Shown here one piece after another: positions 9,047 to 59,535 of a stretch of DNA of 64,000 nucleotides. Both the position numbers and the translations under genes were made by a program. Every line of letters starts with the position of its first letter. Within the stretch, counting starts at the first letter, position 1. Location: the NCBI GenBank assembly GCA_963697895.1, contig OY969100.1:128001-192000 (forward strand). The letters run 5' to 3'. Below the pieces are notes generated by a model. That model worked only from the letters and a program-made list of their open reading frames with translations. It searched no databases and was not told where the DNA came from. This DNA comes from an uncultured Methanomicrobiales archaeon. Its GTDB lineage: Archaea; Halobacteriota; Methanomicrobia; Methanomicrobiales; Methanospirillaceae.

Positions 9047-10768
9047 ATGAACAAAACGGTTGAACCCATCCTAATCGATCCGGATACCCCTATACGGAGA
9101 GTAATGGAAATAATCAACGAGGCACCTCATAAAGGTGCAGTTGCCGGAATAGCGTTGGTTGTGGACGAAGAAAAATATGTAAAGGGCGTGATCAGCGACG
9201 GGGATATCAGACGTGCCACCCTTCGGGGAGTGTCTCTTGACGCTCCGGCAGAGACCATCATGATAACGGATCCCATAACGGTCCTGCAGGGCCTGTCCGG
9301 CAGTGAAATGATCAAAGAAATCACCAGAAAACTGAATTCAACGGACAGGATAAAAAATAAGAAGATCGAAAAAGTCATTATCGTCGACGAATCCGGCAGG
9401 ATCGAAGATGTAATCACTATTTTCGATCTCTGGAAAAAAAATGAGATGAGTATAAAGAATATATGTGTCGTCGGTTTGGGATATGTCGGATTAACCCTTG
9501 CCGTATCCCTTGCAGACGTTGGTTTTACGGTCGTCGGCATCGATAAAAATTCCGCAGTCGTTCATACCCTGGGACAGGGAAAGCCCCATTTCCATGAACA
9601 AGGGCTCGATACCATCCTTAAATATCATATAAACAAGTCTTTCTCGGTACGTTCCACGTTTGATTCCATACAATCCGATGTCTATATCATCTGCGTCGAT
9701 ACCCCGGTCGATGAGTCCCATCGCCCCGATATGGAAAATCTGAAAAATGCGTGCGAATCGATAGGCAAAATAGTAAAAAGAGACGATCTGGTCATTTTGA
9801 GATCTACCGTCCCGATCGGGACATCGAGAGGCGTGATACCCCCCATTCTGGAAGAGGGATCGGGCATGACCTGTGGGACCGATTTCTTCCTGGCCTTTGC
9901 TCCCGAACGAACGCTGGCCGGCAAAGCGTTGGAGGAACTCAGGACACTCCCCCAGATAGTGGGAGGGTGGAACGAGATCAGTTCCGAGATGGCGTCCAAC
10001 ATCTTCAAAAGACTGACCCCGACCATTGTAACGGTAGACTCTCTCGAGGCCGCAGAAATGATCAAGTTAATGGACAACAGTTTCCGGGACCTCATCTTCG
10101 CGTTCTCGAATGAACTTGCACTGGTCTGCGACAAATTCAATCTGGACACCGTGAAAGCAATACGGGCGGCAAATGAAGGGTATTTAAGAAACCGGATACC
10201 GCTTCCCAGTCCGGGTGTCGGGGGCTCATGCCTGACCAAGGATCCTTATATCCTGATCCATAATGCCCTCCAAAAAGGGTATAATTTGAAATTAACCAGA
10301 AGTGCAAGGGAAATAAATGAATATATGCCTCTATTTATCGCAGAAAAAATTTTTGGTTTTTTAAAAGAGCACGAGATCGATATGTCCCGGGCAAAAATTT
10401 TTATCATGGGATTCGCGTTCAAGGGATCGGAAGAGACTTCGGATATTCGAAAGTCCCCCGCGATCGAGTTATTAGCGCACCTTCGCTCCATGAACCCGGG
10501 CTCAAACATCTTCGGGTACGATGCGGTCGTACAACAGGAGGTAATTCACCATCTCGGGGTGATCCCCTGTACTATCGATAAGGGGTTCGAGCAGGCCGAT
10601 GTCGTCGTGATAATGAATAACCACAAGTCCTTTTCGGGTATGGACATCTATGCCCACCTCGAGAAGATGAACAAACCCGGGCTCTTTTTCGACGGCTGGC
10701 ATACCTTTCCCAAGGAAGTCATCTCAAATGTCGAGGGCATTGTTTACGGAGGTCTGGGTGTTGAATGA
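9047..10768 (+). CDS. CBS-domain + nucleotide-sugar dehydrogenase (UDP-HexNAc dehydrogenase WecC/WbpA family)
   Basis: N-terminal CBS pair (GVISDGDIRR); GLGYVG, RSTVPIGT, PER, AEMIKL, PGVGGSCL (catalytic Cys), AFKG...DIRKSP. Confidence 0.88.
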   Translation: MNKTVEPILIDPDTPIRRVMEIINEAPHKGAVAGIALVVDEEKYVKGVISDGDIRRATLRGVSLDAPAETIMITDPITVLQGLSGSEMIKEITRKLNSTDRIKNKKIEKVIIVDESGRIEDVITIFDLWKKNEMSIKNICVVGLGYVGLTLAVSLADVGFTVVGIDKNSAVVHTLGQGKPHFHEQGLDTILKYHINKSFSVRSTFDSIQSDVYIICVDTPVDESHRPDMENLKNACESIGKIVKRDDLVILRSTVPIGTSRGVIPPILEEGSGMTCGTDFFLAFAPERTLAGKALEELRTLPQIVGGWNEISSEMASNIFKRLTPTIVTVDSLEAAEMIKLMDNSFRDLIFAFSNELALVCDKFNLDTVKAIRAANEGYLRNRIPLPSPGVGGSCLTKDPYILIHNALQKGYNLKLTRSAREINEYMPLFIAEKIFGFLKEHEIDMSRAKIFIMGFAFKGSEETSDIRKSPAIELLAHLRSMNPGSNIFGYDAVVQQEVIHHLGVIPCTIDKGFEQADVVVIMNNHKSFSGMDIYAHLEKMNKPGLFFDGWHTFPKEVISNVEGIVYGGLGVE

Positions 10769-11669
10769 TCCCTCCGGTCAGATCGGCGTCATAACGACCT
10801 TTTTTGGATATAAAGGAAAAATCCTCCCTAAGATTCGTTTATTATCGGAGATCTTCCTCTCCCTGGGCATCAGGCCGTACATCCAGCTCCACTCCGAGCC
10901 CTCTGAGGAGTTTGATCCTCTTGTTCACGAATTGATCTCGGTACAAAAAGAGTACGATATCAAGTACAGCATCCATCAGTCCCTGTGGCTGCCCCACAGC
11001 GATTTTTTCATCAATTTAGGAAGCAGCGACCCGGATATCAGGGAGGGTTCGATACGGGCTATGAAAAGGTCGATGGATCTTGCGGTCCTGATCGGTGCGA
11101 AGAATGTCAGTTTCCATGCAGGGTATGCAGCGAACGATATGCGACAAGGTTCCGAATTCGATACGCTCGTGCCGGTCGGTGAAATTCCCTATGAGATCGC
11201 GTATGAAAATGTAAACCGGGGACTTCGGGAGATAGTCGATTATCGTGATGAAGATATCCGGATCAGCATAGAAAATTTGTGCCATCGGCCCGGTAACCGG
11301 TATCTCTTTTCAGAACCCTCTGATTTTTTGCATCTGCCCGGCGGGGTGAATGTCCTCTTTGACATCGGTCATGCATATTATTCGGGTGCCCGGACGGACG
11401 ATCCCGGATACATCGACCGGTTTATACAGATAACCGGGGGAAAGATCTCGGAAATTCACGCGAGTGATAACGAGGGGATGGAGGACGAGCACAAGCTGGT
11501 CGGGTCTGGTTCCATTCCCTTTCCTGAAATATTCGGTACAATCAGAAAATTCCAGAGAATGCCGCCGGTCATCATCGAAGCGACCGGCCGGAGATATAAC
11601 TATTCGGATACCGACCTTAAAACCAGTATTATGCAGCTGAATGAGATGCTTTCAGGGGTGGGCGCATGA
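10761..11669 (+). CDS. Sugar phosphate isomerase/epimerase (xylose-isomerase-like TIM barrel)
   Basis: SFHAG, IENL, FDIGH, EIHASDN...EH, IIE metal-binding pattern. TTG at 10761 taken as start (ORF open from 10728). Confidence 0.8.
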   Translation: MNDPSGQIGVITTFFGYKGKILPKIRLLSEIFLSLGIRPYIQLHSEPSEEFDPLVHELISVQKEYDIKYSIHQSLWLPHSDFFINLGSSDPDIREGSIRAMKRSMDLAVLIGAKNVSFHAGYAANDMRQGSEFDTLVPVGEIPYEIAYENVNRGLREIVDYRDEDIRISIENLCHRPGNRYLFSEPSDFLHLPGGVNVLFDIGHAYYSGARTDDPGYIDRFIQITGGKISEIHASDNEGMEDEHKLVGSGSIPFPEIFGTIRKFQRMPPVIIEATGRRYNYSDTDLKTSIMQLNEMLSGVGA

Positions 11670-12640
11670 ACCGGTCAGCAGATCCGCCGGTTACCATCAT
11701 CGCCGAACTCTGTCAGAATCACAAGGGGGATATCGATATCCTCAAAGAAATGGTGCGGGAATCAGCGAAGGCAGGCGCAACATATGCCAAAATACAGTCC
11801 ATGTATGCGGACGACCTCACGTTCAGGGAGAGGTTCGAGACAGGATTGATCAAAGACGGGAAAACCCTTACGATCAAGCGGCCGTTCCGGCAGGAATATG
11901 ACCGCCTCAGACCCATGGACCTCGATCCCGAAGCACACTGGATTTTTATCAGGGAATGTGAGCGGTATCACATAAAGCCCCTCACCACTGTTTTTTCCCG
12001 ATCGAGGATACCGTTTCTCGAACAATTCCCCTGGAACGAGATCAAAGTGGCAAGTTATGACTGTGCCAGTTTTCCCCTGATACGGGAATTAAAAGAGAGA
12101 TTCGGACACCTGTTCATCTCCACGGGTGCAACCTACGATCACGAGATCCGGAAAACCGCAGAGATACTGAAAAACCATGGTTATACGTTTCTTCACGGAG
12201 TGACCATTTATCCGACACCCCTCGATTCATTGAATCTTGCACGGATGGATTATTTGAGGCAATTCTCCCCGGCCGTCGGGTTCAGCGATCATACCCTGGT
12301 AGAAAGGGACGGGATAAACGCGTCCATTGTGGCGTTATATAGGGGAGCCGATCTTATTGAAAGACACTTCACCGTCCTCGACAAAACGGAAACCAAGGAC
12401 GGGCCCGTATCGATAAACCCGGACCAGCTGAAAGAACTGGTGGAATTTTCAAAAATGGATAAACATATGCTCAAATCTTATGTACAAAAAGAAATTCCGG
12501 ATTACCGGAGGATGATCGGTGACGGGAGATCGAACCTGACCCACGAGGAGTTATTGAACAGGGACTATTACCGGGGCCGTTTCGCCAGTAAGATCGATAA
12601 CGAGGTCGTGTACAACTATGACGAAAAAAGGGCCTTCTGA
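11666..12640 (+). CDS. neuB: N-acetylneuraminate (nonulosonate) synthase family, no evident C-terminal SAF domain
   Basis: IIAELCQNH, KVASYD, ISTG, LHGVTIYPT, GFSDH, IERHFT...KD. Confidence 0.85.
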   Translation: MNRSADPPVTIIAELCQNHKGDIDILKEMVRESAKAGATYAKIQSMYADDLTFRERFETGLIKDGKTLTIKRPFRQEYDRLRPMDLDPEAHWIFIRECERYHIKPLTTVFSRSRIPFLEQFPWNEIKVASYDCASFPLIRELKERFGHLFISTGATYDHEIRKTAEILKNHGYTFLHGVTIYPTPLDSLNLARMDYLRQFSPAVGFSDHTLVERDGINASIVALYRGADLIERHFTVLDKTETKDGPVSINPDQLKELVEFSKMDKHMLKSYVQKEIPDYRRMIGDGRSNLTHEELLNRDYYRGRFASKIDNEVVYNYDEKRAF

Positions 12641-13373
12641 CCGGAAAAACATCCTGGGGATCATTCCGGCACGCGGAGGGTCAAAAGGAGTTCCGAGAAA
12701 AAACATCAGGTTGTTGCATGGAATTCCTTTAATTGCGTATTCCATCTCTGAGGCAAAAAAATCACGGTATCTGAACCGGGTAGTCGTGTCGACCGAGGAC
12801 GCCGAGATTGCGGAGGTGGCGCAAAAGTGGGGGGCAGACATTGTTCTCCGCCCGGATGACCTTGCGGCTGATGATTCTCCGGTATTATTGGCATTAAAGC
12901 AGGTTGTCCTACACCTGTCGGAGAAGGAAGGATATGATGCGGATATCGTTGTCATGCTCCAGCCGACAACGCCATTCCGTAGAGCCCCCGATATTGATAA
13001 TGCTGTTGAATTGCTCTTAAAAACCAATGCGGATTCCGTGATCAGCGTTTGTGAGGCGCCCCATACCTGCAATCCCCACTGGGTAAGAAAAATCGTTGAC
13101 GGCAGGCTCCGTCCCTACACGGATCGGGACGAAGATCTTCACCCGATGAGACAGGATTTACCAAAGGTATACTGGCGGAACGGCCAGATATATGCGATGA
13201 AGAGATCGGTGCTGTTCGATAAAGACAGCCTGTACGGAGACGACTGCCGGCCGTATATCATGCCGAGGAATTTCCATATCAATATCGACGAGGAACTGGA
13301 CCTTCTGCTTGCCGGACTGATCATTGAAAAAGGACTGATTGAAATTGACAAACCGGAAATGGTTTCCCGGTAG
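12618..13373 (+). CDS. neuA: Acylneuraminate cytidylyltransferase
   Basis: IIPARGGSKGVPRKN, VVSTED, LQPTTPFR, NIDEELD. Confidence 0.93.
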   Translation: MTKKGPSDRKNILGIIPARGGSKGVPRKNIRLLHGIPLIAYSISEAKKSRYLNRVVVSTEDAEIAEVAQKWGADIVLRPDDLAADDSPVLLALKQVVLHLSEKEGYDADIVVMLQPTTPFRRAPDIDNAVELLLKTNADSVISVCEAPHTCNPHWVRKIVDGRLRPYTDRDEDLHPMRQDLPKVYWRNGQIYAMKRSVLFDKDSLYGDDCRPYIMPRNFHINIDEELDLLLAGLIIEKGLIEIDKPEMVSR

Positions 13374-13706: not shown

Positions 13707-14285
13707 TTAAGCCCGGTATCCGAGTATCTTTCCCGGGTTTCCTGCCACGATCGCATTGTCGGGAACTTCTTTCACCACTACCGCACCCGCGCCGATAACA
13801 GCATTTTTCCCTATCCTGCCGACGTTCGGAAGAATTATGCATCTCTCGAGTAATATTGCCCCTTCCTCGATCACGGTCTTCTTCAACAGGACCTCTTTTT
13901 CCGTCAGGGAACGGTACTGGTGATCGTGCGTGAGTATGGAGACATCATTCGTGATCAGGACATTGTCTTTTATCACCAGTTCTCCCCTGATGTCCAGTCG
14001 CACGTTATTCCGGATGGTCACCCCGTCTCCCAGGATAAGCGTACCGTTGCCATCGATCCGGACACCATCTCCGATCAATGCGAATTTCGATTCGATGGGA
14101 AGTTTGTAGGGGCTTCTCGGCAGGATCAGTCTGCCGCGTGCGTACACGGTTCCCCGTATCCGTGAACGTATCCAGGAATTCCGAAGCGTATTGAAGACGG
14201 GAAGATCCGGAGAGGTGAGCAGTTCCATGAATCCGTTATACAAACGGATCGAAAATAACCGGTAATTTCTTCCCCTGCTTTTCAT
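13707..14285 (-). CDS. Hexapeptide-repeat O-acyltransferase
   Basis: ILTHDH, IGKNAVIGAGAVVVKEVP, VAGNP. Confidence 0.88.
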   Translation of the reverse strand: MKSRGRNYRLFSIRLYNGFMELLTSPDLPVFNTLRNSWIRSRIRGTVYARGRLILPRSPYKLPIESKFALIGDGVRIDGNGTLILGDGVTIRNNVRLDIRGELVIKDNVLITNDVSILTHDHQYRSLTEKEVLLKKTVIEEGAILLERCIILPNVGRIGKNAVIGAGAVVVKEVPDNAIVAGNPGKILGYRA

Positions 14286-14306: not shown

Positions 14307-15476
14307 TCAGTATCCACCATGTTCCGGTCTCCGGTCGGGCCCGCCTGGCGGTGACCCTCCGGCGACGCGCCGGTAATACGCCTCCGCGAGGTCGGTGATC
14401 CGCTCCCAGTCGTAGGGTCCGGTGAACGCGATCGCGTGCGGCCGCATCTCCGGTGCACGGGCCAATGCTTTACGGATGGCGACCGCGAGCGCCGGCGCCG
14501 TCGGGGCGCAGAGGACCCCCTGGTCCGCGGTGACAAAGTCCTTTGCCGCATTCTGCGGGTGATCCGCGGTGACCAGGACGAGGCCGCAGGCCAGGGCCTC
14601 GAGCGCCGCGATGCCGAACCCCTCGCGGGTGGAAGGGAATGCAAAGACGGTCGCGGATTTCATCCGGGAGATCACCGCGTCGTGGGTCGGAAGCATGCCG
14701 GTGAACGTGACCTGCCCTGCAACCTGCAACGTCCGGGCGAGCGCCTCCAGCCGTTCCCGTTCCGGACCGTCCCCGATGATCAGGCAGCGGATGCCGGGGA
14801 GTTCCGCCGCACACGACGCGACCGCCTCGATCAGGAGGTCGACATGCTTCTCCGGGATGAGCCGCCCGGCAAACAGGACATCGACCGGGTCCGGCGAGGC
14901 GGGCAGTGCGAGGATCCGTTCCCGGTCGATCCCGTTCGGGATGATCGCGCTCTCCTGCCCGGAGAGTTCCCAAAGAGCCCGGGCAGTGAGGGGGGAAGCC
15001 GAGACCGCATGGGGAGAGATACCCGCCACCACCCGTTCGATTGCTTTTCCAAACGCCCCCCATCTCCCGAGGTATTCGTACCAGTACTCCCCCCATACCT
15101 CGTGCCAGGTGATCACGAGGGGCGTCCTCCGGAGAACCGCACTCAGTTTCGCTCCGAATACCGAGAAGAAGGGAAAGTGCTGGCAGTCGATCAGGTCGAA
15201 TCTCCGGGAAACAAGCGGGATCACGACGGCCCACCCGAAGAGGATCGCTTCCCCGATGGACCGTCTCCCGTCGCGGTACAGGGGCATCTCCGGGCAGACC
15301 CCGTGGAGCGTCACCCCCTCACGGGTGATGGTTGTGGCGCCGACCCAGCAGTGCATCCCGAAGAGGTGCACCTCGTGCCCTCGTCCTGCGAGCCGCTTCG
15401 CCACCTCCCAGATCCGCAGCTGCACCCCGCCCGGTATCTCGGGATATACCGCATCGTAGACGTAGGCGATCCGCAT
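14307..15476 (-). CDS. Glycosyltransferase family 4
   Basis: YDAVYPEIPGG, TWHEVW, GRLIPEK, REGFGIAALEALACG. Confidence 0.93.
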   Translation of the reverse strand: MRIAYVYDAVYPEIPGGVQLRIWEVAKRLAGRGHEVHLFGMHCWVGATTITREGVTLHGVCPEMPLYRDGRRSIGEAILFGWAVVIPLVSRRFDLIDCQHFPFFSVFGAKLSAVLRRTPLVITWHEVWGEYWYEYLGRWGAFGKAIERVVAGISPHAVSASPLTARALWELSGQESAIIPNGIDRERILALPASPDPVDVLFAGRLIPEKHVDLLIEAVASCAAELPGIRCLIIGDGPERERLEALARTLQVAGQVTFTGMLPTHDAVISRMKSATVFAFPSTREGFGIAALEALACGLVLVTADHPQNAAKDFVTADQGVLCAPTAPALAVAIRKALARAPEMRPHAIAFTGPYDWERITDLAEAYYRRVAGGSPPGGPDRRPEHGGY

Positions 15477-15488
15477 CGCTCCCCCCGT

Positions 15489-16655
15489 TCAGGACTCCGG
15501 CAGGTTCATCCGCATCATGCTCACAAAGATGGCAAAGAAGATGATCTGCACCCCGATGCTGATCCCGGCAAGGGAGAGGATCGCGTTTGCGATCTCGGAG
15601 AGAGACCCGTACCCGGACTGGATCCACTCGGAGATGATCGAGAACCCGAGCACGATCCCGAGCAGGATCAGCAGGCCCCCGAGGAGGAGAAACCGTTCCA
15701 GGTTATGATACCGGAGGATCACCTCCGTGACCCTGCTCCGCTCCCCGTACCCGTGGATCTCGGAATACACGTCGATCATCGCCCCGGTCAGGAACGCCTG
15801 GACGCCCGCCACCAGGAGAAAACCGCCGAGGATGACGGTGTGGGCGTGCGTCTCGGCCGATCCGAGGGCGAGAAGACTGATCAGGGCGATCCCGATGAGG
15901 GCGAAGATCAGCCCGGGGACCGCGATGAACGGGATCGGTTTTAGGAGCAGAATGAACCGCACGTGCCGCCACCCGTCGGCAAAGGAATGCAGATTTGACG
16001 GGCTCTTCCGGGGATGATAGTGAATCGGGACCTCCTCTATCCGGAGATGCTCCCGGTTCGCCGCGACGAGCATCTCAGATGCGAACTCCATCCCCGACGA
16101 AGTCAGGCGGAGCCGCTCCAGGGCCTCCCGCCGGATCGCCCGGTACCCGCTGTGGGTATCGGTAAACTGCGTGTGAAAGATCCGGTTCAGGAGCCAGGTG
16201 AGCAGGGGGTTTCCGATGTACCGGTGCAGCCATGTCATCGACCCCGGATCCATCTTCCCGGTGAAGCGGGACCCGATCACGAGGTCGGCTCCCCGGGAGA
16301 GCGGGGAGACGAGGGCGGGAAGTTCGGAGAAGTCGTACGTCCCGTCGGCGTCTCCCATGACGACGTAATCCCCCCGGGCACGCCCGAATCCCGCGATATA
16401 GGCGTTCCCGTACCCCCGTGCCCCGGGATGGATCACCACCGCCCCGAGCGATCGGGCGATCTCCGGGGTCCGGTCGGTGGAAGAATCGGCAACGATGATC
16501 TCCCCGGAGATCCCGTTCTCCCGGAACGCCTGCTGAATCGCCTGGATACAGGGACCGATCGTCTGCTCCTCGTTCAGCGACGGGAGGACGACCGATACGG
16601 TCCCTTTCATCCCTGCCGGGGCCGGCTGATCTCCTTCATGGTTCATCCGCACCAC
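15489..16655 (-). CDS. GT2, dolichol-phosphate glycosyltransferase-like, with C-terminal membrane domain
   Basis: LPSLNEE, GYGNA, MGDADGTY, VIGSR, TDTHSGYR, GMEFASE; four hydrophobic C-terminal segments. Confidence 0.88.
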   Translation of the reverse strand: MVRMNHEGDQPAPAGMKGTVSVVLPSLNEEQTIGPCIQAIQQAFRENGISGEIIVADSSTDRTPEIARSLGAVVIHPGARGYGNAYIAGFGRARGDYVVMGDADGTYDFSELPALVSPLSRGADLVIGSRFTGKMDPGSMTWLHRYIGNPLLTWLLNRIFHTQFTDTHSGYRAIRREALERLRLTSSGMEFASEMLVAANREHLRIEEVPIHYHPRKSPSNLHSFADGWRHVRFILLLKPIPFIAVPGLIFALIGIALISLLALGSAETHAHTVILGGFLLVAGVQAFLTGAMIDVYSEIHGYGERSRVTEVILRYHNLERFLLLGGLLILLGIVLGFSIISEWIQSGYGSLSEIANAILSLAGISIGVQIIFFAIFVSMMRMNLPES

Positions 16656-16670: not shown

Positions 16671-19136
16671 TCACGGGACCTGCAGCCCCTTCCGCACGTC
16701 GTCTTCCGTCACCTGGTACGTCGTCCCGGTGCCGGCGATCCGGTACGGCCCGAGCGCCCGCACCCCGGTCCCGGTATCGATGGTCGGGTACGGCACGATG
16801 AACTCCCCGTTCTCGCTCTGCTGCCGGTAGGTAAACTGCCTCCCCTCGTTCGTTTCCAGGGAGAGCTCGATGATGCCGTCCCCCCGGATGTGCGCCCCCT
16901 CCACGATCTCGAAGATCTTGACCGCCTGTATCGGCGCCAGCCCGGGCTGCCGTGCATTGGTCGGGGACTCGTAGACGAGGCGGAAATGCCTGAGCGCGGG
17001 AATCACGTCCACGGGCTGGTCCACGAACCCGCTGACCGCGATGGCTCCGGAATCCCCGGTAAGCCCCGACTGTACGGCCTTCGCACGCGCTTCTCCTGCC
17101 GGGAGCTTCTCCATCGTGGTGACAACCGGGTAGGGCACTCCGGCTTCCCGCGTATATTCAACATAGAACGCCGTGTCCGGAACGACCATGCTCCCGTCGA
17201 AGTTGTGGAGCCGGGTGGACATGGCGAGGAAGAACGGTTGCGCAAAGAACTGGAGAACTTTCGTATCCCCGGAAGCCTGAGGCTGGATCATGATGGGTGT
17301 AAAGTCCTCCCAGGTGAAGCCCCGCGGGATGGACTGATTCCCGAGGACCAGCGTCGTGACGTACCCGTAATCGGTGACCACGTAACGACTCCCGAGGGCG
17401 GATGAGACATTCAGGGCGGTATTCTCGTCCTGTGCGAAGAGGAACTGGTAGACGTTGTTCCGCCCCGTAACATGATCCTGGAACGGGTTTGCATTCGGGA
17501 TACGCTGCGCGATGTACGTGATCCAGTGCCCCGCCGGCCACCGGGCGAGTACGCCGTAGGCGGTATCCGGATACTGGAACGTGTCCTTATCGTAGATCCG
17601 GTAATAGTCGACCCCCGTCTCCGGGGTATGGGTACCCATCCACGTCGTCGCCGCGACCCAGTCGGCCGGGATCATATCGGATGCCTGCCCCTGGTGGTTC
17701 GCGATGATCACCGAGGTGGTGGCCGAGAGCACCGCAAAGAGCACCAGCAGGACCAGCGCGATGATCGCGACGGCCGCCCGGACCCCGGACGGCTTCTCCA
17801 CGGAGGGGGCCTCTTTCCGGGGCTTTCCCTTCTGCTTCGGGGTTTTCTCCCCCCCGGAACGCCGGAGGAGGCGGCGGATGTCTCCTCCCCCCCATGACCA
17901 TGCCGCAGTGACCGCGAGCGCGGAGAGGAGGACCACCGGCACGGCCAGGTAATATTCGTACCGGAGGTGCTGGATCGTCGAGAAGAGCACCACTGCGCCC
18001 CATACGAGCACGAACATGGCCTCCGCACGGCGGGTCCGGTATATTTCATACAGGAGGACGAAAAATCCCCCTGCCATAAGGATGAGACCGACGTTGAAGA
18101 CTGCCACGGCCCGGGTCAGGTCCCAGGGCTGGAGCTCCGCGACATAATACGGCTGCCCGATGTTCGCGAAGAAGACGCCTGCCGACTGGACCATCAGCTG
18201 CCCGAACTCCGGCAGGACCACGAGGGGGATGCCGATCGCAAGGAGCGCCGCCGCGATGAGGAATACGATAAAAAGGAGCTGTTTTTTCCGGAACACCCGG
18301 GTGAGGGCATACAGGACGGCCGTCACAACTATCAGGATCAGGTACACGTACACGTGCGCCATCGAATACAGGGAGAGGGAGAGCAAGGAACTCTTCGCGC
18401 CGAAGAGGAGGAACCCGATGATGACGATCCCGAAGATCGTCGCGTTCATGAAGAGGAGGTATGCGGTGGACCGCTCCCGGAAATAATCGGCGATCCCCTG
18501 GGCCAGGGTGAATATACCCACGATGAGGGCGAAGAGGACGATCGTCGGCATGTTCAGCAGACCGAGAAGGTAGGCGATACCCGCAAGGACAGAGAGGAGG
18601 AGGGGGGTCGTCAATGTCCGGAGGTCCTTTGTCGTCATCTCCTTCCAGCCGGGGTACCGGAGGAGGGCGATGTAGATGAGGGCAAAGATGGTGGAGAAGA
18701 GGACCTCCATGATATGGTGGTCCACGTACCCGAAGAAGCCCCGGTACATGTATTCCCCGGCGACCACGGCGATCAGGCCGGCCGCGATCAGGCCGGTCCA
18801 CTTGTCCCGGAGCACCCGCCCGGTCAGGTACATCACCGGGACCATCAGGGCCGCGAGGATGACCGGGAAGATCGAGGCGACATATGCCGCTTCAGGGCGG
18901 GTCGTTGCCCCGAACAGGAGACAGAACGCGGCGGCCGAGACCGGAAAGAGCGGCCCCCAGTCGATGATCTTCCCGTCGGGGTACGCAGTCATCGGGTCGA
19001 ACCAGGCATAACCCGGGAAGTTGTGGATCACCTGGTCGATCTGGCGCATCATGAACCAGGGATCGGTTGAGATGAGCCGCACCTGGCCGTCGATGACGAG
19101 CGAAGCGGCAGGGAGCATGCGGATCGCGACCGCCAC
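16671..19136 (-). CDS. aglB: Oligosaccharyltransferase AglB/STT3 family, atypical paralog; frame stays open to 19244
   Basis: STDPW, FDPMT.YP.G..IDWGP, GYVDHH, VAE, HLRYEYY, GHWITY..RIPNANPFQ, LRHFRLVYES, VKIFE, SENGEFIVPY. The WWDYG motif reads RWPAG. Confidence 0.92.
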   Translation of the reverse strand: MAVAIRMLPAASLVIDGQVRLISTDPWFMMRQIDQVIHNFPGYAWFDPMTAYPDGKIIDWGPLFPVSAAAFCLLFGATTRPEAAYVASIFPVILAALMVPVMYLTGRVLRDKWTGLIAAGLIAVVAGEYMYRGFFGYVDHHIMEVLFSTIFALIYIALLRYPGWKEMTTKDLRTLTTPLLLSVLAGIAYLLGLLNMPTIVLFALIVGIFTLAQGIADYFRERSTAYLLFMNATIFGIVIIGFLLFGAKSSLLSLSLYSMAHVYVYLILIVVTAVLYALTRVFRKKQLLFIVFLIAAALLAIGIPLVVLPEFGQLMVQSAGVFFANIGQPYYVAELQPWDLTRAVAVFNVGLILMAGGFFVLLYEIYRTRRAEAMFVLVWGAVVLFSTIQHLRYEYYLAVPVVLLSALAVTAAWSWGGGDIRRLLRRSGGEKTPKQKGKPRKEAPSVEKPSGVRAAVAIIALVLLVLFAVLSATTSVIIANHQGQASDMIPADWVAATTWMGTHTPETGVDYYRIYDKDTFQYPDTAYGVLARWPAGHWITYIAQRIPNANPFQDHVTGRNNVYQFLFAQDENTALNVSSALGSRYVVTDYGYVTTLVLGNQSIPRGFTWEDFTPIMIQPQASGDTKVLQFFAQPFFLAMSTRLHNFDGSMVVPDTAFYVEYTREAGVPYPVVTTMEKLPAGEARAKAVQSGLTGDSGAIAVSGFVDQPVDVIPALRHFRLVYESPTNARQPGLAPIQAVKIFEIVEGAHIRGDGIIELSLETNEGRQFTYRQQSENGEFIVPYPTIDTGTGVRALGPYRIAGTGTTYQVTEDDVRKGLQVP

Positions 19137-19573
19137 GGCAATGAACAGGAGGAGCAGGAGGGGTACGATGTACTTCCGGAGCGCCGGAGATAAACCCGTT
19201 TTCGCGGGTTCCGGGGGTTTCGTCGGGTCGGGAATAATACTGTACTATTGCCGATCGTGAATCATAAACGTTCTCTTGCAGGATATCCGGGAAGCCGCCG
19301 GACGCTGTTTTCCGACCCCGGTGAGGTACCATAAAGAGGTGCCTGCCAGAAAATCCCGGTGTTCCGGCCGTTTTTTTTATCCGGAGAGGAAAAACCGGAC
19401 ATAAGGATCGGGAAGAAATTATAACAAAATCTATAGGAAGACACGACAATTCATTACCGGAGAGACCGGGGATGGTGGCTGGATGCCACAATACCGTGAT
19501 GAATAACGGTTTTTGGCCGCCTGTACATCGGTACAGGAGAAACTCGGAGAACGATTAGGGAAGGCACCAGTCC

Positions 19574-20704
19574 ATGTTCCATTTCTCAAATCCTGCCCGG
19601 GTGAGACTGAAGCAATTTTTTTCTCTCCCGGATTGTTATGTTAAAATCATAAGGAATGAAGAATTTAAAAAATCCCGGAATAAATCAGGATGGGAACTGG
19701 CACGGGATCTCTGGACCCTTTTTTTCAGCTATAAAATGTTTCCCAGGATTTATGTCTGGTGCCGGTTATGGGAAGTGGACCGATCGCAGTGGAAATATTA
19801 CTACGGATATCAAACCATCCAGAAGGCGAGATTGCGAAGTACCGTTGAACCCCGGGAATACGATATCCTCTTCGACGATAAAGCGGTTTGTGAACTTCTC
19901 TGCAGGGGGATCGGGGTAACGAATCTTCCGCATACCTATGGTCTCATTCGTCCCGATCAGGACTATACCGAGAGGATCAGATCGATCTTTCAACATGCAG
20001 CGACACCTTCCCTGATCATCAAGCCGGTACGGGGTCATGCGGGGCGGGACATAGTACTGGTCACGATGACCGACGGGACCATCAGGATCCGGTCCGGACG
20101 GGAACTCATACCGCTGGAGGATTTTACGTTAGCAAAACCTGCGATTGTCCAGGAACTGGTTAAGCAGGACCGGAGAATGGCCGCATATTCATCAGCGTCC
20201 GTGAACACGATACGGGTCCTGACAATGTTCACCAAAAACGAGTCTGTTATTGTCCTGGCTGCATCGATGCTCTGTGGTGTCGGGGATTCGTATGTCAGCA
20301 ACTGGTCCGCGGGAGGGGTCGGGATCGGTATCGATACGGCAACAGGACGACTCATGAAATATGCGCATGATAAAAATGCAACGAGATATACGGAACATCC
20401 GACATCGAAAATTACGTTTGAAGGTTTTCCGGTACCCGAATGGGAGCGGATCATCGACCTCGCCACGACAATTCAAAAAGCATTCCCCTTTTACCGGATG
20501 CTCGGCACGGATATCGCCCTTCGGGAAGGGGGGGAACCGGTCCTTATCGAGATAAACAACGATCCGGGGTTTTCGGGAATGGAACAAACACGCCCTTTGC
20601 TCCAGGCCGAACAGAATCTGAAAGCATTTGGGGAATACGATCTGTTCATCAACAAACACCAGAGGGAACTGTATGCTGATAAAGAGAATACCGCGGGCGT
20701 CTGA
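19574..20704 (+). CDS. Sugar-transfer-associated ATP-grasp ligase (copy 1)
   Basis: FDDK, IIKPVRGHAGRDI, VQELVKQ, SVNTIRV, VSN, GTDIA...PVLIEIN. Confidence 0.82.
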   Translation: MFHFSNPARVRLKQFFSLPDCYVKIIRNEEFKKSRNKSGWELARDLWTLFFSYKMFPRIYVWCRLWEVDRSQWKYYYGYQTIQKARLRSTVEPREYDILFDDKAVCELLCRGIGVTNLPHTYGLIRPDQDYTERIRSIFQHAATPSLIIKPVRGHAGRDIVLVTMTDGTIRIRSGRELIPLEDFTLAKPAIVQELVKQDRRMAAYSSASVNTIRVLTMFTKNESVIVLAASMLCGVGDSYVSNWSAGGVGIGIDTATGRLMKYAHDKNATRYTEHPTSKITFEGFPVPEWERIIDLATTIQKAFPFYRMLGTDIALREGGEPVLIEINNDPGFSGMEQTRPLLQAEQNLKAFGEYDLFINKHQRELYADKENTAGV

Positions 20705-20755
20705 TCTGCGAAATAACCGGTAATCCGGGTGAAGAGAGGCAGGAGGCATTCAGTC

Positions 20756-21898
20756 ATGTTGCGCGTATCGAATCCAGCGGTTAACCGATTGACAGAATTT
20801 TTTTATCTCCCTGATTGTTATCGGAAAATAATAACCAGCAAAGAGTTTAAAAATTCAGGTAAAAGATTACGGGTGGGGGTGGCATTTGATCTTCTGATCC
20901 TTTTTTTCAGCTACAGATCGTTTCCCAGCCACTACGGTATGAACCGGTTATGGGAAATCGACAGATCTCAATGGAAATATTATTTTGGAGACGAACTGAC
21001 AACCTACCAGAGATCAAGGCTGGGGAGCACGGTGGAACCCCGGGAATATGAAATTCTCTTCGATGATAAGGCAGTCTGTGAAATTCTCTGCAGGGGAATC
21101 GGTGTGAGTAATCTTCCCCGTATGCATGGTCTCCTCAGCCCCGGTCAGAACTACCGGGAAAGAATCAGGGCATGGTTACAAAATTCAGCAACAGGTCCCC
21201 TGATCATCAAGCCGGTACGAGGTCATTCGGGGCGGGGTATCGTTCTGGTAAAGGAGATTGAGGGAATTATCATGATCCAATCCCTGTCGGGGTTGGTACC
21301 CCTGGAGGATTTTACGTTGGAGAGACCTGCGATCGTGCAGGAGCTGATAAAGCAGGACCCGAGGATGGCTGCATTTTCCCGATCGTCGGTGAACACCATC
21401 CGCGTCCTGACCATGTTTACCAGGGACGAGTCCGTCATTGTCCTCGCCGCATCGATGCTCTGTGGTATCGGGGATTCTTATGTCAGCAACTGGTCCAGAG
21501 GGGGGGTCGGTCTGGGTGTCGATCCGCTCACCGGGCGGTTAATGAAATACGCGTATGATAAGGACGCAAAAAGGTATTCAAAACATCCGACGTCCGATGT
21601 TCCGTTTGAAGGGTATCAGATACCCGGATGGGAGCGGATCATCGACCTCGCCATAACCATACAGAGGGCTTTTCCCTGTTACCGCATTCTCGGGATCGAT
21701 TTTGCGATCCGGGAAGACGGCGAACCGGTCATCGTTGAAATAAACAGCAATGCAAGTCTTCTCGGACAGGAACAATCCTGCGGACCATTGCTTCAGGCCG
21801 AACAGAATCTCAGAGCGTTCGGGGAATATGACCTGTTTATCAACAGGCACCAGAGGGAACTGTATAAAATTTATAAACGAAAAAACGAGAGGTCATAA
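20756..21898 (+). CDS. Sugar-transfer-associated ATP-grasp ligase (copy 2, tandem paralog)
   Basis: Same motifs as copy 1 (IIKPVRGHSGRGI, SVNTIRV, GIDFA...IVEIN) and long identical stretches with it. Confidence 0.82.
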   Translation: MLRVSNPAVNRLTEFFYLPDCYRKIITSKEFKNSGKRLRVGVAFDLLILFFSYRSFPSHYGMNRLWEIDRSQWKYYFGDELTTYQRSRLGSTVEPREYEILFDDKAVCEILCRGIGVSNLPRMHGLLSPGQNYRERIRAWLQNSATGPLIIKPVRGHSGRGIVLVKEIEGIIMIQSLSGLVPLEDFTLERPAIVQELIKQDPRMAAFSRSSVNTIRVLTMFTRDESVIVLAASMLCGIGDSYVSNWSRGGVGLGVDPLTGRLMKYAYDKDAKRYSKHPTSDVPFEGYQIPGWERIIDLAITIQRAFPCYRILGIDFAIREDGEPVIVEINSNASLLGQEQSCGPLLQAEQNLRAFGEYDLFINRHQRELYKIYKRKNERS

Positions 21899-21899
21899 C

Positions 21900-23804
21900 G
21901 TGTGCGGCATAACGGGCATCTGGTCCTATAATCAACCCGATATTTCAGACCGGGAGATGGACAGCTTCACCGATATTCTTGCGCACCGCGGACCGGACGG
22001 GAGAGGCACGTACCGCGATGGGGGATGCGATCTCCGGCTCGGGCACCGCCGGCTGGCAATACTCGATCTATCGGATGCCGGGCACCAACCGATGAGTTCT
22101 GCCGATGGAAGATATTGGATCGTCTTTAACGGCGAGATCTACAACTACCTTGAACTCAGAGCGGAACTGGAAGCTCTGGGGCATGTATTTACCAGTCACA
22201 CCGATACTGAAGTTCTTCTTGCCTCGTATATTCAGTGGGGGGAAGAATGTCAGCTCAAATGTAACGGGATGTGGGCGTTCGCGATCTGGGATGCGGATAC
22301 CCGGACCCTGTTCCTCTCGAGGGACCGGTTTGGAATAAAGCCCCTTTACTATATCGTGAATGACCGGTTTTTCTCTTTTTCTTCGGAGATGAAAGGATTT
22401 CTCGCGTTAAAGTGCTACAACTACGGATTTGATGACGAAAATATCATACGGACCCTCCGTGAGGTTGACGATCTCGAAGGAACCGAGGAGTGCCTCCTTC
22501 AGGGAGTGAAACGCCTGATCGGGGGGCATTGCCTGACAATCGGATCGAAAAGAAGTCCAAAGATCACCCGATGGTGGGATACCCGCGACCACCTTGTCGA
22601 GGTACCGGAGACCTTTGAAGAACAGGCGAAAAAATTCCGCGAACTTTTTCTGGATGCCTGTCGTATCCGGATGCGCAGCGACGTTTCGATCGCCACAAGC
22701 CTGAGCGGGGGGCTGGATTCCAGTTCCGTACTGGCAGCTGTTTATAAAATAGGGCAGGTCGAAGGGTTTACCACGGACTGGCAGAAGGCATTTGTAGCCT
22801 GCTATCCGGAAACCGGGCTGGACGAGAGTCATTATGCGGGCGTAATGATCGACGCGACCGGAGCATTCCCCGTCTTCACGGAGATCGGGTACGATCTCGT
22901 GAAGAAGCATATCCAGGATATTGTCTATCAAAACGAGGGGATCGATCGGATACTCCTGGAAGGTGCATGGCTCAATTATAAGGCAATGCGGGACAACAAG
23001 GTCGTCGTAAGCCTGGACGGGCACGGTGCCGACGAACTGCTCGCCGGTTACGCAACGATCGTAAACACGGAGAAAAATTATGCTGTCCAGCACGGCAACC
23101 TGTTCTATTATTCCGACCTGCGGAACGTATTGAAAAATCTCAGGGAAGGTTCACAATCCGTACAACTGTCGATCCATGACGACATGATCTATTTTTTTGC
23201 CGCGAATTTCTTCTCGATGGGGAAGAAACTCGCAAATATGCTCCCCAGAAACAACAGGCGAGATCTTTCGCCGGGGTATTCTGCGGTGGTACCCGATCCG
23301 GTCATACAATCACATCTGAATACGACGTTATACGATTATTTTCATTGCCGGAAACTCCAGACCATCCTTCGGATTTTTGATCGTCTGTCCATGGCCCACG
23401 GGATTGAAGTCAGGATGCCTTTCATGGACTGGCGACTGGTGACCTATGCTTTTTCTTTACCGGACAACTGCAAACTCTCGAAGGGGTATACAAAATGGAT
23501 CCTCCGTGCCTCGATGGACTCAATGTTACCCGAATCCATTCGTTTGCGGAAGAATAAAATCGGCTTTTCATCACCGATGACACAATTTTTTGAATCGGGG
23601 CTCGGTGATATCATCCTTCCCCTCATTACCGATTGTGTTCATCGGTACCCGCAATTTTACCCCGAGGGAGATCTGGTGGCGGATATTCAACGGTATACCG
23701 CCCAGAAAAACTGGCCGAAATTACGATCGTTATGGCCAATCCTGCAGATATATCTCTTAATCGATGCGTTTAATAAAAAGAGGGATTCGCTCTTGGCGCT
23801 CTAG
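21900..23804 (+). CDS. asnB: Asparagine synthase (glutamine-hydrolysing) family amidotransferase
   Basis: GTG-CGITG N-terminal Cys, HRGPDG, GHRRL, FNGEIYN, RDRFGIKP, LSGGLDSS, GHGADE, DRLSMAHGIEVRMPF. Confidence 0.93.
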   Translation: MCGITGIWSYNQPDISDREMDSFTDILAHRGPDGRGTYRDGGCDLRLGHRRLAILDLSDAGHQPMSSADGRYWIVFNGEIYNYLELRAELEALGHVFTSHTDTEVLLASYIQWGEECQLKCNGMWAFAIWDADTRTLFLSRDRFGIKPLYYIVNDRFFSFSSEMKGFLALKCYNYGFDDENIIRTLREVDDLEGTEECLLQGVKRLIGGHCLTIGSKRSPKITRWWDTRDHLVEVPETFEEQAKKFRELFLDACRIRMRSDVSIATSLSGGLDSSSVLAAVYKIGQVEGFTTDWQKAFVACYPETGLDESHYAGVMIDATGAFPVFTEIGYDLVKKHIQDIVYQNEGIDRILLEGAWLNYKAMRDNKVVVSLDGHGADELLAGYATIVNTEKNYAVQHGNLFYYSDLRNVLKNLREGSQSVQLSIHDDMIYFFAANFFSMGKKLANMLPRNNRRDLSPGYSAVVPDPVIQSHLNTTLYDYFHCRKLQTILRIFDRLSMAHGIEVRMPFMDWRLVTYAFSLPDNCKLSKGYTKWILRASMDSMLPESIRLRKNKIGFSSPMTQFFESGLGDIILPLITDCVHRYPQFYPEGDLVADIQRYTAQKNWPKLRSLWPILQIYLLIDAFNKKRDSLLAL

Positions 23805-27048: not shown

Positions 27049-29313
27049 TTGCAAATGCCAGGAAAAGCAATCTGCCTTGCGACCAATCAATTTGAGGGGA
27101 TAGATCAAATCGGTGGTATCGGTACATATTACCGGGAACTATCAATACTCCTCTCAAAAAACGGCTGGAGTGTTTTTGTGTTATATCTCCCCTATTACAG
27201 CCACGTCAGTGAAGACGAATTAAAGGCATTTTCAAATTCTTTTCTTGAAATCCATGGAATTCCCATTTACGATGCAAGGGTCCTGTGTAAGGGTATCGAA
27301 GATCAAAATGATTTAATAAACGCGTATGAGTTTATGGCACAATCCGATCGCCATCTTGCCCAAAGTCATATGTTACACGAAGCAATTCAAATCCTTCAGA
27401 AAAAATATGACTTCACATTCGATCTTATTGAATTTCATGAATGGCAGGGAATTGGCGCGATTCCCGTGAGGATGAAAAAAATCTGCAAGAGCTATGAAAA
27501 TACGAAAATGATTGTTAAGTTACATAGCCCGGATGCCTGGATAAGAGAAAGTTTTTTTGATCCTTCGTTGTGTCAGAGAGACGTAAAGATCGATTATTTA
27601 AACAGATATTCTTTCGAAAATGCCGACATACAGGTTTCGCCAACAGAATATCTCTTACACTGGTGTACATTTCATGGCTGGGATGTGAGAGATGATGCAT
27701 CTGTATGCAGAAATATAATATCTCTCCCAAAGGAAAAAATTCCTGAAGAATTGGTTAAGGAACATATAATTGCCTTTTTTGGGAGAATCGAAGAGAGAAA
27801 AGGGTTATTAGAATTTATGGATTCCTTATTGTATATTAAAAGAAATCACCCGGAATTTCAGGAAAAATATTCCATTGCTTTTGTCGGTACGAAAGGAAAA
27901 ATTACAAATGAAAGTATTAAGGAACGATTATCGGGATTCAATGTCGAATTTCATTCATTTATTAATAGAGATGATGCATTGGATTTCATAAAGAAAAAAC
28001 CCAGCCTGGTGGTCATACCGTCCTGGCAGGATAATTTCCCTAATACCGTTCTGGAATGCATGTCCCTTGCAGTTCCGTTTATTTCCTCCCGGGGAGGGGG
28101 AATCCCGGAGATGCTGGGAAAAGATAGCGAGTTGTATAATTCAATTTCATGCGACGTTACAGACCCAAAACAATTGGGAGACTTGATCATCAGCTATCTC
28201 AAAAATGAGCCTGAGACTACGATCAGGCTCCTTTCAATGGCACAAGACCGGCTGCAGGAACTCGTGGATCCTGATGTAATATTGAGATGGTACGAAAAAA
28301 ATGTGGAAAATGATGTGCCGTTTAATAATCTCCCCATCAATATCGGAAATCATGAATCAGAAGCTTTGGTTACCCTTTCCGTGCTGGTTAAGGATCAGGT
28401 TACCGAACGATACCTGGAAACGACCCTGCAATCTATTCTGATGCAGACGTACAAAAATATGAAAATTCTCATATACGATACCAGGAGCGACTCTCAGGCC
28501 CTCTTAAGGTTTGATCACCTTAAAAGAAGGTATCCGGACAGGGAAATTACCTTCCTCCACGCCGAGGCCTCTAAAGGGATTAATGAAATGATGACTCACA
28601 TCGATACAAAATATCTTTTGATTGTGGATGATAGGAATATCGCAAAACCTGAGATGGTGGACACTTTTGTCCGGTGTATGGAAAAACAGGATTCCATGGC
28701 CTCCCTGTCATGTTACTACAGGTTTTTTACTGATGAAGACGAGGCCACGATTATGAACCATGTAACAATGTCAAAAGATGGAATTCCAAAAATATCAAAC
28801 AATTCCTTGTTTTCGTCAATAGGTCCCTGCATTCCGTTAATCTTTACTGAAAATATTATGGGAGATTCAAATGCAATATACGTGACAGAGATTGTTAAAA
28901 AGGTCGGTGGATGGCCATATTCAAAAAGTGGTTACCGTGACTGGACGATGCGGGTAAAATTATTGGCATACGGGTATCATATGGATGTACTCCCCGAAGT
29001 CCTCTTCTATTCCCGCCAGGGCCCGGAAGATGAGAAAGCCAAATTAAATTTATTGTATGTTGATGATGTTAATATCAACAATATTAAGAAATTTTTAAAA
29101 ATGTATCCGGATACGTATTCTCAGTATTACTGGAATATTCATAGATTAATGAGATGTCCTCGTCAGGAAAGACGGAAGACCGGAGATGAAAAGAGTCCCT
29201 TGATCCTGATCGGTAAAAGACTGGGAGAATTTGCCGATCGAAATCCGGCATGGAAAAAGATTTTTACCGTTTCTGGTAATTTTTTAAGGAAGATTCTTAT
29301 AAAAAAGGAATAA
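27049..29313 (+). CDS. Bifunctional glycosyltransferase (GT4 plus degenerate GT2)
   Basis: GGIGTY, FGRIEERKG, DNFPNTVLE in the GT-B half; LETTLQSILMQTY, IVDDRN, DW in the GT-A half. Confidence 0.82.
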   Translation: MQMPGKAICLATNQFEGIDQIGGIGTYYRELSILLSKNGWSVFVLYLPYYSHVSEDELKAFSNSFLEIHGIPIYDARVLCKGIEDQNDLINAYEFMAQSDRHLAQSHMLHEAIQILQKKYDFTFDLIEFHEWQGIGAIPVRMKKICKSYENTKMIVKLHSPDAWIRESFFDPSLCQRDVKIDYLNRYSFENADIQVSPTEYLLHWCTFHGWDVRDDASVCRNIISLPKEKIPEELVKEHIIAFFGRIEERKGLLEFMDSLLYIKRNHPEFQEKYSIAFVGTKGKITNESIKERLSGFNVEFHSFINRDDALDFIKKKPSLVVIPSWQDNFPNTVLECMSLAVPFISSRGGGIPEMLGKDSELYNSISCDVTDPKQLGDLIISYLKNEPETTIRLLSMAQDRLQELVDPDVILRWYEKNVENDVPFNNLPINIGNHESEALVTLSVLVKDQVTERYLETTLQSILMQTYKNMKILIYDTRSDSQALLRFDHLKRRYPDREITFLHAEASKGINEMMTHIDTKYLLIVDDRNIAKPEMVDTFVRCMEKQDSMASLSCYYRFFTDEDEATIMNHVTMSKDGIPKISNNSLFSSIGPCIPLIFTENIMGDSNAIYVTEIVKKVGGWPYSKSGYRDWTMRVKLLAYGYHMDVLPEVLFYSRQGPEDEKAKLNLLYVDDVNINNIKKFLKMYPDTYSQYYWNIHRLMRCPRQERRKTGDEKSPLILIGKRLGEFADRNPAWKKIFTVSGNFLRKILIKKE

Positions 29314-56203: not shown

Positions 56204-58596
<2,393 letters not shown>

Positions 58597-59456: not shown

Positions 59457-59535
59457 TCCCGTTCTTAAAAACGCCCGGGAACTTCGGTATTCCTGGCAAA
59501 AAGACGGGAACGGAAAAAAAGGGGTATAGTTTTCC

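Follow-up and report, generated by a model that had tools for sequence, protein, structure and literature searches.

The motif WWDXG is described as common to STT3, PglB and AglB in two reviews (PMC2952790, PMC11407970). According to PMC7226087 and PMC8342417, from which we also take the residue roles of the first DXD, DHH, TIXE, WWD and DK motifs, WWDYG/WWDXG hydrogen-bonds the Ser or Thr occupying position +2 of the N-X-S/T sequon and a DK or MI motif completes the pocket. Motif variation among aglB copies has already been mentioned in print. Here we describe AglB*, a variant AglB in a 64,000-nucleotide stretch (the window; contig OY969100.1, positions 128,001 to 192,000, assembly GCA_963697895.1) of the genome of an uncultured Methanomicrobiales archaeon, in which RWPAG replaces WWDYG and the catalytic residues are kept. 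Its genome also encodes a canonical AglB, and the variant is a candidate transferase for a second glycosylation pathway. In having two N-glycosylation pathways with distinct transferases in one cell, such an organism would resemble organisms that have several oligosaccharyltransferases differing in specificity and Haloferax volcanii, whose low-salt pathway is AglB-independent, its transferase being unidentified according to PMC5131992 and PMC6098224. H. volcanii has a single recognisable aglB, so its second transferase is unlike AglB*. The gene occupies the following frame (all coordinates refer to the window unless stated otherwise).

16671..19244, minus strand: open frame of the variant AglB (AglB*), 857 codons from stop to stop, stop codon at 16671-16673; protein P0001.

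The nearest solved relative of AglB*, both by sequence (HMMER E 4.4e-47) and by fold, is the Archaeoglobus fulgidus AglB-L (AfAglB-L; PDB 3WAJ/3WAK/5GMY/7E9S). Foldseek placed AfAglB-L (7e9s_A) at the top of the matches to the AlphaFold2 model of AglB* (E 3.6e-35, TM-score 0.73), a predicted and not a solved structure with a predicted local distance difference test score (pLDDT) of 80.1 and a predicted template modelling score (pTM) of 0.77. The two proteins have the same order of transmembrane domain, core and peripheral domains, and are only 22% identical in the model alignment. GT-C enzymes that share the fold and have other acceptors (ArnT, PMT, DPY19) are weaker structural matches. AglB* lies well above the cut-off of NCBIfam TIGR04154 (717.6 bits against 450), a family labelled 'oligosaccharyl transferase, archaeosortase A system-associated', and matches Pfam PF02516 (66.6, cut-off 24.5), PF22627 (97.4, cut-off 27) and PF18079 (47.3, cut-off 23.6), under the names STT3, AglB_core-like and AglB_L1; 103 family-conserved positions are kept. 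AglB* is a full-length AglB/STT3 with, in the predicted structure, the GT-C fold, composed of a multi-helix transmembrane domain and a C-terminal globular domain.

The difference lies in the acceptor pocket. AfAglB-L has WWDYG (550-554), the DK lysine and the TIXE Thr, whereas AglB* has RWPAG, lacks the DK lysine and carries Tyr in place of the Thr. The pocket and catalytic elements are as follows, with residue counts that compare 16 full-length members (812-895 aa) of the RWPAG clade, described below, with 91 canonical proteins.

17529..17543, minus strand: R568-W-P-A-G572 in place of WWDYG, from the codons and from alignments to AfAglB-L and the genome's own canonical paralog.
17328..17372, minus strand: residues 625-639 (DYGYVTTLVLGNQSI), the former DK-motif segment, from the comparison of canonical and clade columns.
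17472..17477, minus strand: D590-H591, immediately after NPFQ, forming the accessory signature NPFQD[N/H]; in the clade D in 14/16 and H in 15/16, in canonical proteins G591 in 90/91.
19062..19064, minus strand: D61, equivalent to AfAglB D47, first DXD motif (HMMER alignment; 16/16 clade members).
18714..18722, minus strand: D175-H176-H177, equivalent to AfAglB D161-H162-H163, metal site (HMMER alignment; 16/16 clade members).
18135..18146, minus strand: Y367-V-A-E370, TIXE with the Glu kept and the Thr replaced; E370 in 16/16 clade members.
17949..17963, minus strand: R428-Y-E-Y-Y, R428 being equivalent to AfAglB R426 beside the phosphate site (HMMER alignment; 16/16 clade members).

The plus strand at 17529-17543 reads CCCCGCCGGCCACCG, whose reverse complement CGG TGG CCG GCG GGG encodes R-W-P-A-G. 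An earlier reading of this DNA from its letters alone (the original prediction) had named the WWDYG to RWPAG replacement at these codons and taken it for a multi-base change in frame, and we confirm both statements. HMMER aligns YGVLARWPAGHWITY of AglB* gap-free onto YGVISWWDYGHWIEA of AfAglB-L, with conserved residues flanking RWPAG on both sides (YGV..., GHWI...), and BLASTP aligns it gap-free onto YGVMSWWDYGHMITF of the second AglB of the same genome. As neither alignment contains a gap, RWPAG is an in-frame substitution and not an indel. Every string quoted in the prediction is present in P0001 (YGVLARWPAGHWITY, STDPW, VDHH, YVAE, HLRYEYY, NPFQ and RYVVTDYGYVTTLV). Reads showing WWDYG had been named as evidence that would overturn the claim; Logan contigs from two runs, one of which may be the window's own source sample, span the motif (X2 over 17118-17632, X1 over 17423-17633), and each differs by no more than a single letter, which could not bring back WWDYG. 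A sequencing or indel artefact is thus ruled out by the gap-free alignments, by clade members with the same motif and by the Logan contigs.

The second half of the pocket is also altered. Canonical proteins have K632 in 89/91, F633 in 91/91 and W639 in 91/91, whereas in the RWPAG clade column 632 reads L13/K2/V1, bearing out the predicted absence of the DK-motif lysine, and columns 633 and 639 are variable, with loss of the canonical F and W. The pLDDT falls below 50 at residues 630-642 of AglB*, and AlphaFold2 confidence over residues 621-640 is 73 and 44 for AglB* versus 94 and 88 for the canonical copy, in the block with its DK motif, a weak hint since the alignments differ in make-up. TIXE reads YVAE, as predicted, and position 367 is Y12/F2/L1/S1 in the clade versus T in 90/91 canonical proteins. 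The catalytic residues, said in the prediction to be intact, are indeed all present in 16/16 full-length clade members (D61, R168, D175-H176-H177, E370 and R428, with R168 corresponding to AfAglB R154 and E370 to AfAglB E360 in the HMMER alignment), and so is the Gln of NPFQ (Q589). Judged by these residues, AglB* has the metal and phosphate site expected of the AglB/STT3 family and lacks both the WWDYG and the DK/MI motif that mark oligosaccharyltransferases reading N-X-S/T.

We searched AglB* residues 480-857 against a collection of 5.8 billion proteins and considered the best 120 of 828 matches. Seventeen other metagenomic proteins, 62-82% identical over this region, carry [R/Q]W[P/T]AG, and identity drops to at most 46% for the next match among those listed. 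Counting the window gene, which is listed twice, 19 of 121 proteins have this motif and the remaining 102 all have WWDYG. A tree built from 107 full-length sequences shows the RWPAG clade as monophyletic (support 1.0); its stem measures 0.67 substitutions per site and its tips lie at a mean depth of 0.41. When the clade profile was run against 1.84 billion cluster representatives, the clade came out as one cluster at 50% identity, scoring 1675.8 bits against 842.6 for the next best hit. All clade members seen are uninterrupted proteins, although N-terminal sequence is missing from two shorter records (576 and 739 aa), and the 16 full-length members differ widely (pairwise identity 0.60-0.95). 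The motif columns are nonetheless nearly fixed, at R14/Q2, W16, P15/T1, A16 and G16, against W-W-D-Y-G in 91/91 canonical proteins. Entropy in the clade is 0.28-0.33 for the motif window, 0.73 for the protein mean and 1.2-1.4 for the former DK segment, whereas in canonical proteins the DK segment is better conserved than their own average. Because the motif window is fixed and the catalytic residues are kept across a diversified clade, the conservation pattern, as read from the alignments, is that of a selected change of the acceptor pocket and not of decay. The original prediction would have fallen had the variant been unique to one genome and under relaxed selection; instead, 17 relatives share the motif and the motif window is conserved above average.

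The clade has a narrow known distribution. No member was found in 400 other sampled genomes of the order, where the best identity was 46%; a degenerate W[P/T]AGHWITY pattern gave 0 matches in genome contigs, and a related-locus search there likewise gave none. In one metagenome, a scan for clade loci returned only a canonical AglB (L034, 37% identical) and a fragment (L035). The genus contains this genome alone. Among sequencing runs, relatives turned up in peat, sediment and soil samples. Two observations concern gene copies in relatives. For the clade protein P0018 and for P0122, the nearest sister representative of WWDYG type, the records name a JGI contig 57,299 bases long; the two probably share that contig, and in some relatives both types may occur next to each other. 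In run X4, a peat metagenome, a 445-nt contig joins the 3' end of AglB* (16676-16817), 197 other letters and the region upstream of the 5' end (19173-19278), which has the look of a tandem second copy in a relative about 90% identical; depth over 18001-19267 is roughly double the value on either side.

A check for a second, canonical AglB, proposed with the original prediction, gave a clear answer. The single-contig genome of 2.09 Mb has two STT3 matches, and the second (L001 1336-3939, 867 aa), 40% identical to AglB* over the full length by BLASTP, is canonical, with SWWDYGH and TDIEMDTLKFWAMATW. Canonical TIGR04154 AglBs have WWDYG (91/91), NPFQxG and a DK-type D..M...KFWAM segment, none of which is found in AglB*. 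The genome also encodes archaeosortase A and two PGF-CTERM proteins.

The prediction had further suggested looking for STT3 homologs without WWD and for their conservation as clades. In a survey of the 117 listed cluster representatives of at least 700 aa from the clade-profile search, loss of WWD proved not to be unique to AglB*: W-W-D stands at the aligned columns in 96/117 and is missing from 21/117, with examples such as LWDYG, VWDAG, PWDTG, NWDKG, WWNFG, WWGIG and PWGRG. All 21 keep E370 and R428, 19 keep DHH (the others reading DQH and DYH) and 20 keep D61, one being without its N-terminus. In these sequences, a pocket change with retention of the catalytic residues is thus recurrent. 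Sister to the RWPAG clade, with support 0.977, are six representatives that combine WWDYG or LWDYG with NPFQD[H/R/N/Y]. The clade itself is nested in a branch with support 0.999, where WWD is missing from 14 of 36 representatives, compared with 7 of the 81 outside it.

AglB* reads NPFQDH and so fits the signature NPFQD[N/H] of what we define here as the accessory AglB subfamily and its gene module. A degenerate NPFQD[N/H] pattern matched 113 of 401 sampled genomes of the order and 20 of 44 genera, with 2 matches for the reversed control. Among 30 returned pattern loci, 25 are AglB (21 with WWD[Y/F]G and 4 with [I/T/V]W[D/E]AG) and the other 5 are chance matches. Accessory paralogs of the same order with an altered WWD include Methanospirillum stamsii WP_109940854.1 (WWNFG) and proteins from metagenome-assembled genomes with VWDAG, PWDTG, NWDKG, SWDAG, LWDSG and PWEQG, the latter labelled Methanoregulaceae or Methanomicrobiales; all are publicly annotated as ordinary oligosaccharyl transferases. 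Most of these carry NPFQD[N/H] (WP_109940854.1 reads SPLQEN), and like AglB* they keep the catalytic residues and, at the loci examined, have the same neighbouring glycosyltransferase genes. They change one pocket residue each, either the first Trp or the Asp, whereas the RWPAG clade changes both and the Tyr as well, and loses the DK lysine. By sequence the RWPAG clade is the most radical pocket replacement in the accessory AglB lineage.

The genes downstream of AglB* form a short module with glycosyltransferases of families 2 (GT2) and 4 (GT4).

15489..16655, minus strand: AglJ-like GT2, 388 aa, 15 nt downstream of AglB*; Pfam GT2.
14307..15476, minus strand: GT4 glycosyltransferase, 389 aa, 12 nt downstream of GT2.
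13707..14285, minus strand: hexapeptide-repeat acetyltransferase, 192 aa, 21 nt downstream of GT4.

The GT2 scores 201.4 bits against TIGR04182 (AglJ), below the cut-off of 325, and is probably, from its sequence, the dolichyl-phosphate sugar transferase of the module. GC content at third codon positions (GC3) is 0.84 for AglB*, 0.84 for GT2 and 0.81 for GT4, against 0.55-0.61 for neighbouring genes, 0.66 for the canonical AglB and a genome GC of 0.538. The acetyltransferase may be a fourth gene of the operon, though its composition differs (GC3 0.61). We searched 18-kb regions around accessory and canonical AglBs by tblastn with the GT2 and GT4 of the window, using 12 accessory-pattern matches (of 124 listed), 2 of which proved to be chance, and 8 canonical AglBs; because the module loci were hand-picked from the pattern matches and related genomes do not count as independent, these figures are those of a sample. 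Within 5 kb of the AglB, a GT4 orthologue occurs in 9 of the 10 accessory loci and a GT2 orthologue in 7; 6 loci have the pair and none lacks both. In the whole 18-kb region of the 8 canonical loci, GT4, GT2, both and at least one were each found 0 times. The orthologues are 53-58% (GT2) and 47-55% (GT4) identical over at least 250 aa. The AglBs of the accessory loci have the motifs IWDAG, SWDAG, SWDSG, LWDSG, PWEQG, WWDYG (four times) and WWDFG.

The 5' end of AglB* requires separate discussion. For the frame limit 19244 given in the original prediction we add a correction: 19244 begins the first codon (TAC) after a TAG stop, and TAC is not a start codon. The features of this region are as follows.

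19245..19265, minus strand: in-frame upstream ATG (19263-19265), five codons and TAG (19245-19247), reading ATG ATT CAC GAT CGG CAA TAG.
19182..19184, minus strand: GCG (A21), at the clade start position [V/M]L[R/Q]KY.
19134..19136, minus strand: GTG (V37), first conventional in-frame start, inside the predicted first transmembrane helix (TM1; model residues 20-43).

At the position of the TAG, P0004 has Tyr (MIHDRQYY...) and P0014 has Trp. Seven clade members begin at [V/M]L[R/Q]KY, five with a printed V (GTG start) and two with M, where the window has GCG. The public gene call P0002 (815 aa) corresponds to a start at M43 (19116-19118). Starts are called after TM1 in 3/15 other full-length clade members (P0009, P0018, P0019) versus 1/91 canonical proteins, and a missing conventional start before TM1 may recur in the clade. 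Logan pieces of the near-identical runs X1 and X2 stop short of the start region, the nearest ending at 19152. We also considered read-through of the 5' TAG by pyrrolysine and rejected it: there is no CUA-anticodon tRNA among 46 tRNAs, and TAG ends 77 of 572 long frames.

Elsewhere in the window, the gene of a Cdc48-type AAA ATPase is broken up among at least three frames on the minus strand at 56204-58352 (56991-58352, 57203-58015 and 56204-56923), and ThiC is split in two at 59465-60814, also on the minus strand (59465-60814 covering profile positions 3-281 and 59536-60012 covering 278-419). The breakage of essential genes such as these suggests indel errors in the assembly over real pseudogenes. 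Given these frameshifts, the single-base anomalies TAG and GCG at the 5' end of AglB* may be assembly errors. Inside the gene, position 18671 is T (Ile192) in the window and G (Leu, as in other clade proteins) in contigs of runs X1, X3 and X4, either a private variant or an assembly error.

The residue pattern, the fixation in a clade, the canonical paralog and the conserved module fit a selected, probably active paralog. We estimate a probability of about 0.5 that AglB* serves as transferase in a second, accessory pathway of the N-glycosylation type and follows a changed acceptor rule, its acceptor still being a protein asparagine. In such a pathway, the co-operonic AglJ-like GT2 would load the first sugar onto dolichyl phosphate, the GT4 would lengthen the glycan and the downstream acetyltransferase might acetylate it. 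After flipping, AglB* would transfer the glycan at the outer face through the STT3 metal/phosphate centre (D61, R168, D175-H-H177, E370, R428), and the canonical AglB would continue ordinary N-X-S/T glycosylation. Since WWD, the DK lysine helix and the TIXE Thr are all replaced, acceptor choice by AglB* could no longer be based on the +2 Ser/Thr pocket, and its +2 requirement would be relaxed or changed. A protein asparagine is still the most likely acceptor, because the D61/E370 carboxamide clamp is kept and orthologous modules carry WWDYG-type AglBs. The original prediction had proposed an active paralog with a different acceptor rule. The paralog part of that proposal fits what we found, and the acceptors it offered (non-sequon Asn, O-linkage, lipid or glycan) stay inference. 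More tentatively, and with the odds leaning against it, the RWPAG clade could N-glycosylate asparagines without any N-X-S/T sequon, as the extreme member of a lineage with a repeatedly rewritten pocket, a fixed catalytic core and a dolichyl-phosphate-glycan module.

Several points weigh against a changed rule in an accessory pathway. Of the 10 module AglBs examined, 5 keep WWD[Y/F]G, so the pathway as such needs no new rule; outside this genome the clade is known from metagenomes only; no ATG, GTG or TTG precedes TM1 in the frame of this genome's AglB*, and this copy may be truncated or dead. In addition, the new polar residues near the pocket (R/Q568, D590 and H591) could bind a hydroxyl and leave the rule unchanged. 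On that last account, AglB* would still read the +2 hydroxyl of N-X-S/T through these residues and only the donor glycan would differ. The WWD[Y/F]G of half the module loci makes it probable that the pathway originally targeted sequons, D590 and H591 are new conserved polar residues, and NPFQ, whose Gln lies near the peptide site in AfAglB according to PMC8342417, is kept in 16/16. Yet WWD has lost its two hydrogen-bond donors, the first Trp and the Asp, the DK lysine is missing as well, the DK segment is relaxed and not rebuilt (entropy 1.2-1.4, the clade mean being 0.73), position 568 alternates between R and Q, and WWDXG mutations abolish N-glycosylation in studied enzymes, as stated in a review (PMC2952790). 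We regard a pocket rebuilt for the same job as distinctly unlikely. A transfer of the glycan to something other than asparagine, namely a hydroxyl (O-linkage), a lipid, another glycan or water (a lipid-linked oligosaccharide hydrolase releasing free glycan), seems to us unlikely, although the peptide-reading pocket is dismantled, AfAglB itself hydrolyses lipid-linked oligosaccharide (PMC8342417) and ArnT, PMT and DPY19, for all their weaker structural match, show that GT-C enzymes use other acceptors. The carboxamide clamp for Asn, an Asp/Glu pair, is present in 16/16, the strand-pairing x-[I/V]-x-E segment is retained, and the sister and module orthologues are ordinary WWDYG AglBs. The WWD[Y/F]G of the module AglBs, as far as sequence can tell, points to an ancestral role in protein N-glycosylation over a lipid or glycan acceptor.

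If AglB* were in decay or had no catalytic role, loss of the motif would be a first step of pseudogenisation, or the protein a scaffold, and the missing start would already silence the gene here. The TAG shortly after the only upstream ATG, the GCG where relatives have GTG, the first start inside TM1 and the other clade members called without TM1 (3/15 versus 1/91) are what such a copy would present. Against this, 857 codons are open with 103 family-conserved positions retained, the catalytic residues are kept in 16/16 across pairwise identities of 0.60-0.95, the module is conserved, and the frameshifts in Cdc48 and ThiC leave room for assembly errors at the 5' end. We therefore hold decay to be improbable.

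Positions 1-44000 of the window form a large surface-glycan island of mosaic composition (GC 0.39-0.65 in 2-kb windows). Its genes include several GT2s and GT4s, a nucleotide-sugar dehydrogenase that carries CBS domains, an epimerase, a GT4-GT2 fusion (27049-29313) and NeuB/PseI-like and PseF-like nonulosonic-acid genes (9047-13373). Diverging from AglB*, on the plus strand at 19574-23804, is a tandem pair of ATP-grasp genes of the 'sugar-transfer associated' type (PF14397; 376 and 389 aa; lower GC3, 0.55-0.56), followed by an AsnB-type amidotransferase; the third open reading frame overlaps the second by about 150 nt.

The canonical AglBs have other neighbours. Among the 8 canonical loci examined, an unrelated GT4 adjoins AglB in 4 and a YcaO gene lies nearby in 5; a histone-deacetylase-family gene lies at most 6 nt downstream on the same strand in 5 (L081, L084-L087). 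We know of no discussion of this deacetylase/YcaO neighbourhood. The two PGF-CTERM proteins of the genome are S-layer-like (C1 519802-522405, 867 aa, and 1977949-1980546, 865 aa) and 86% identical overall, with apparently identical C-terminal halves, which suggests recent duplication or gene conversion. Of their 49 and 48 Asn, only 6 and 4 stand in N-X-S/T sequons; the two proteins gave no hint of what the acceptor is.

Our literature search found no multi-oligosaccharyltransferase case tied to a defined STT3 lineage without WWD, and a full-text search found no description of the RWPAG clade, the accessory subfamily, the GT2/GT4 module or an AglB lineage lacking WWD. WWDXG is the structural basis of the N-X-S/T rule, and here a bona fide euryarchaeal AglB lineage is without that pocket and has a conserved catalytic centre. 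The database label 'oligosaccharyl transferase, archaeosortase A system-associated' appears, from the sequences, to hide functionally distinct paralogs. The clade offers a defined set of clonable natural enzymes with which to ask what else the STT3 fold recognises and how a second N-glycosylation pathway stays separate from the first, and it bears on whether the sequon requirement can relax in nature, a matter of relevance to glyco-engineering. If the sequon-free reading is true, this would be a transferase family diversifying its target code, and archaeal N-glycosylation independent of the sequon would have a concrete candidate type in the clade.

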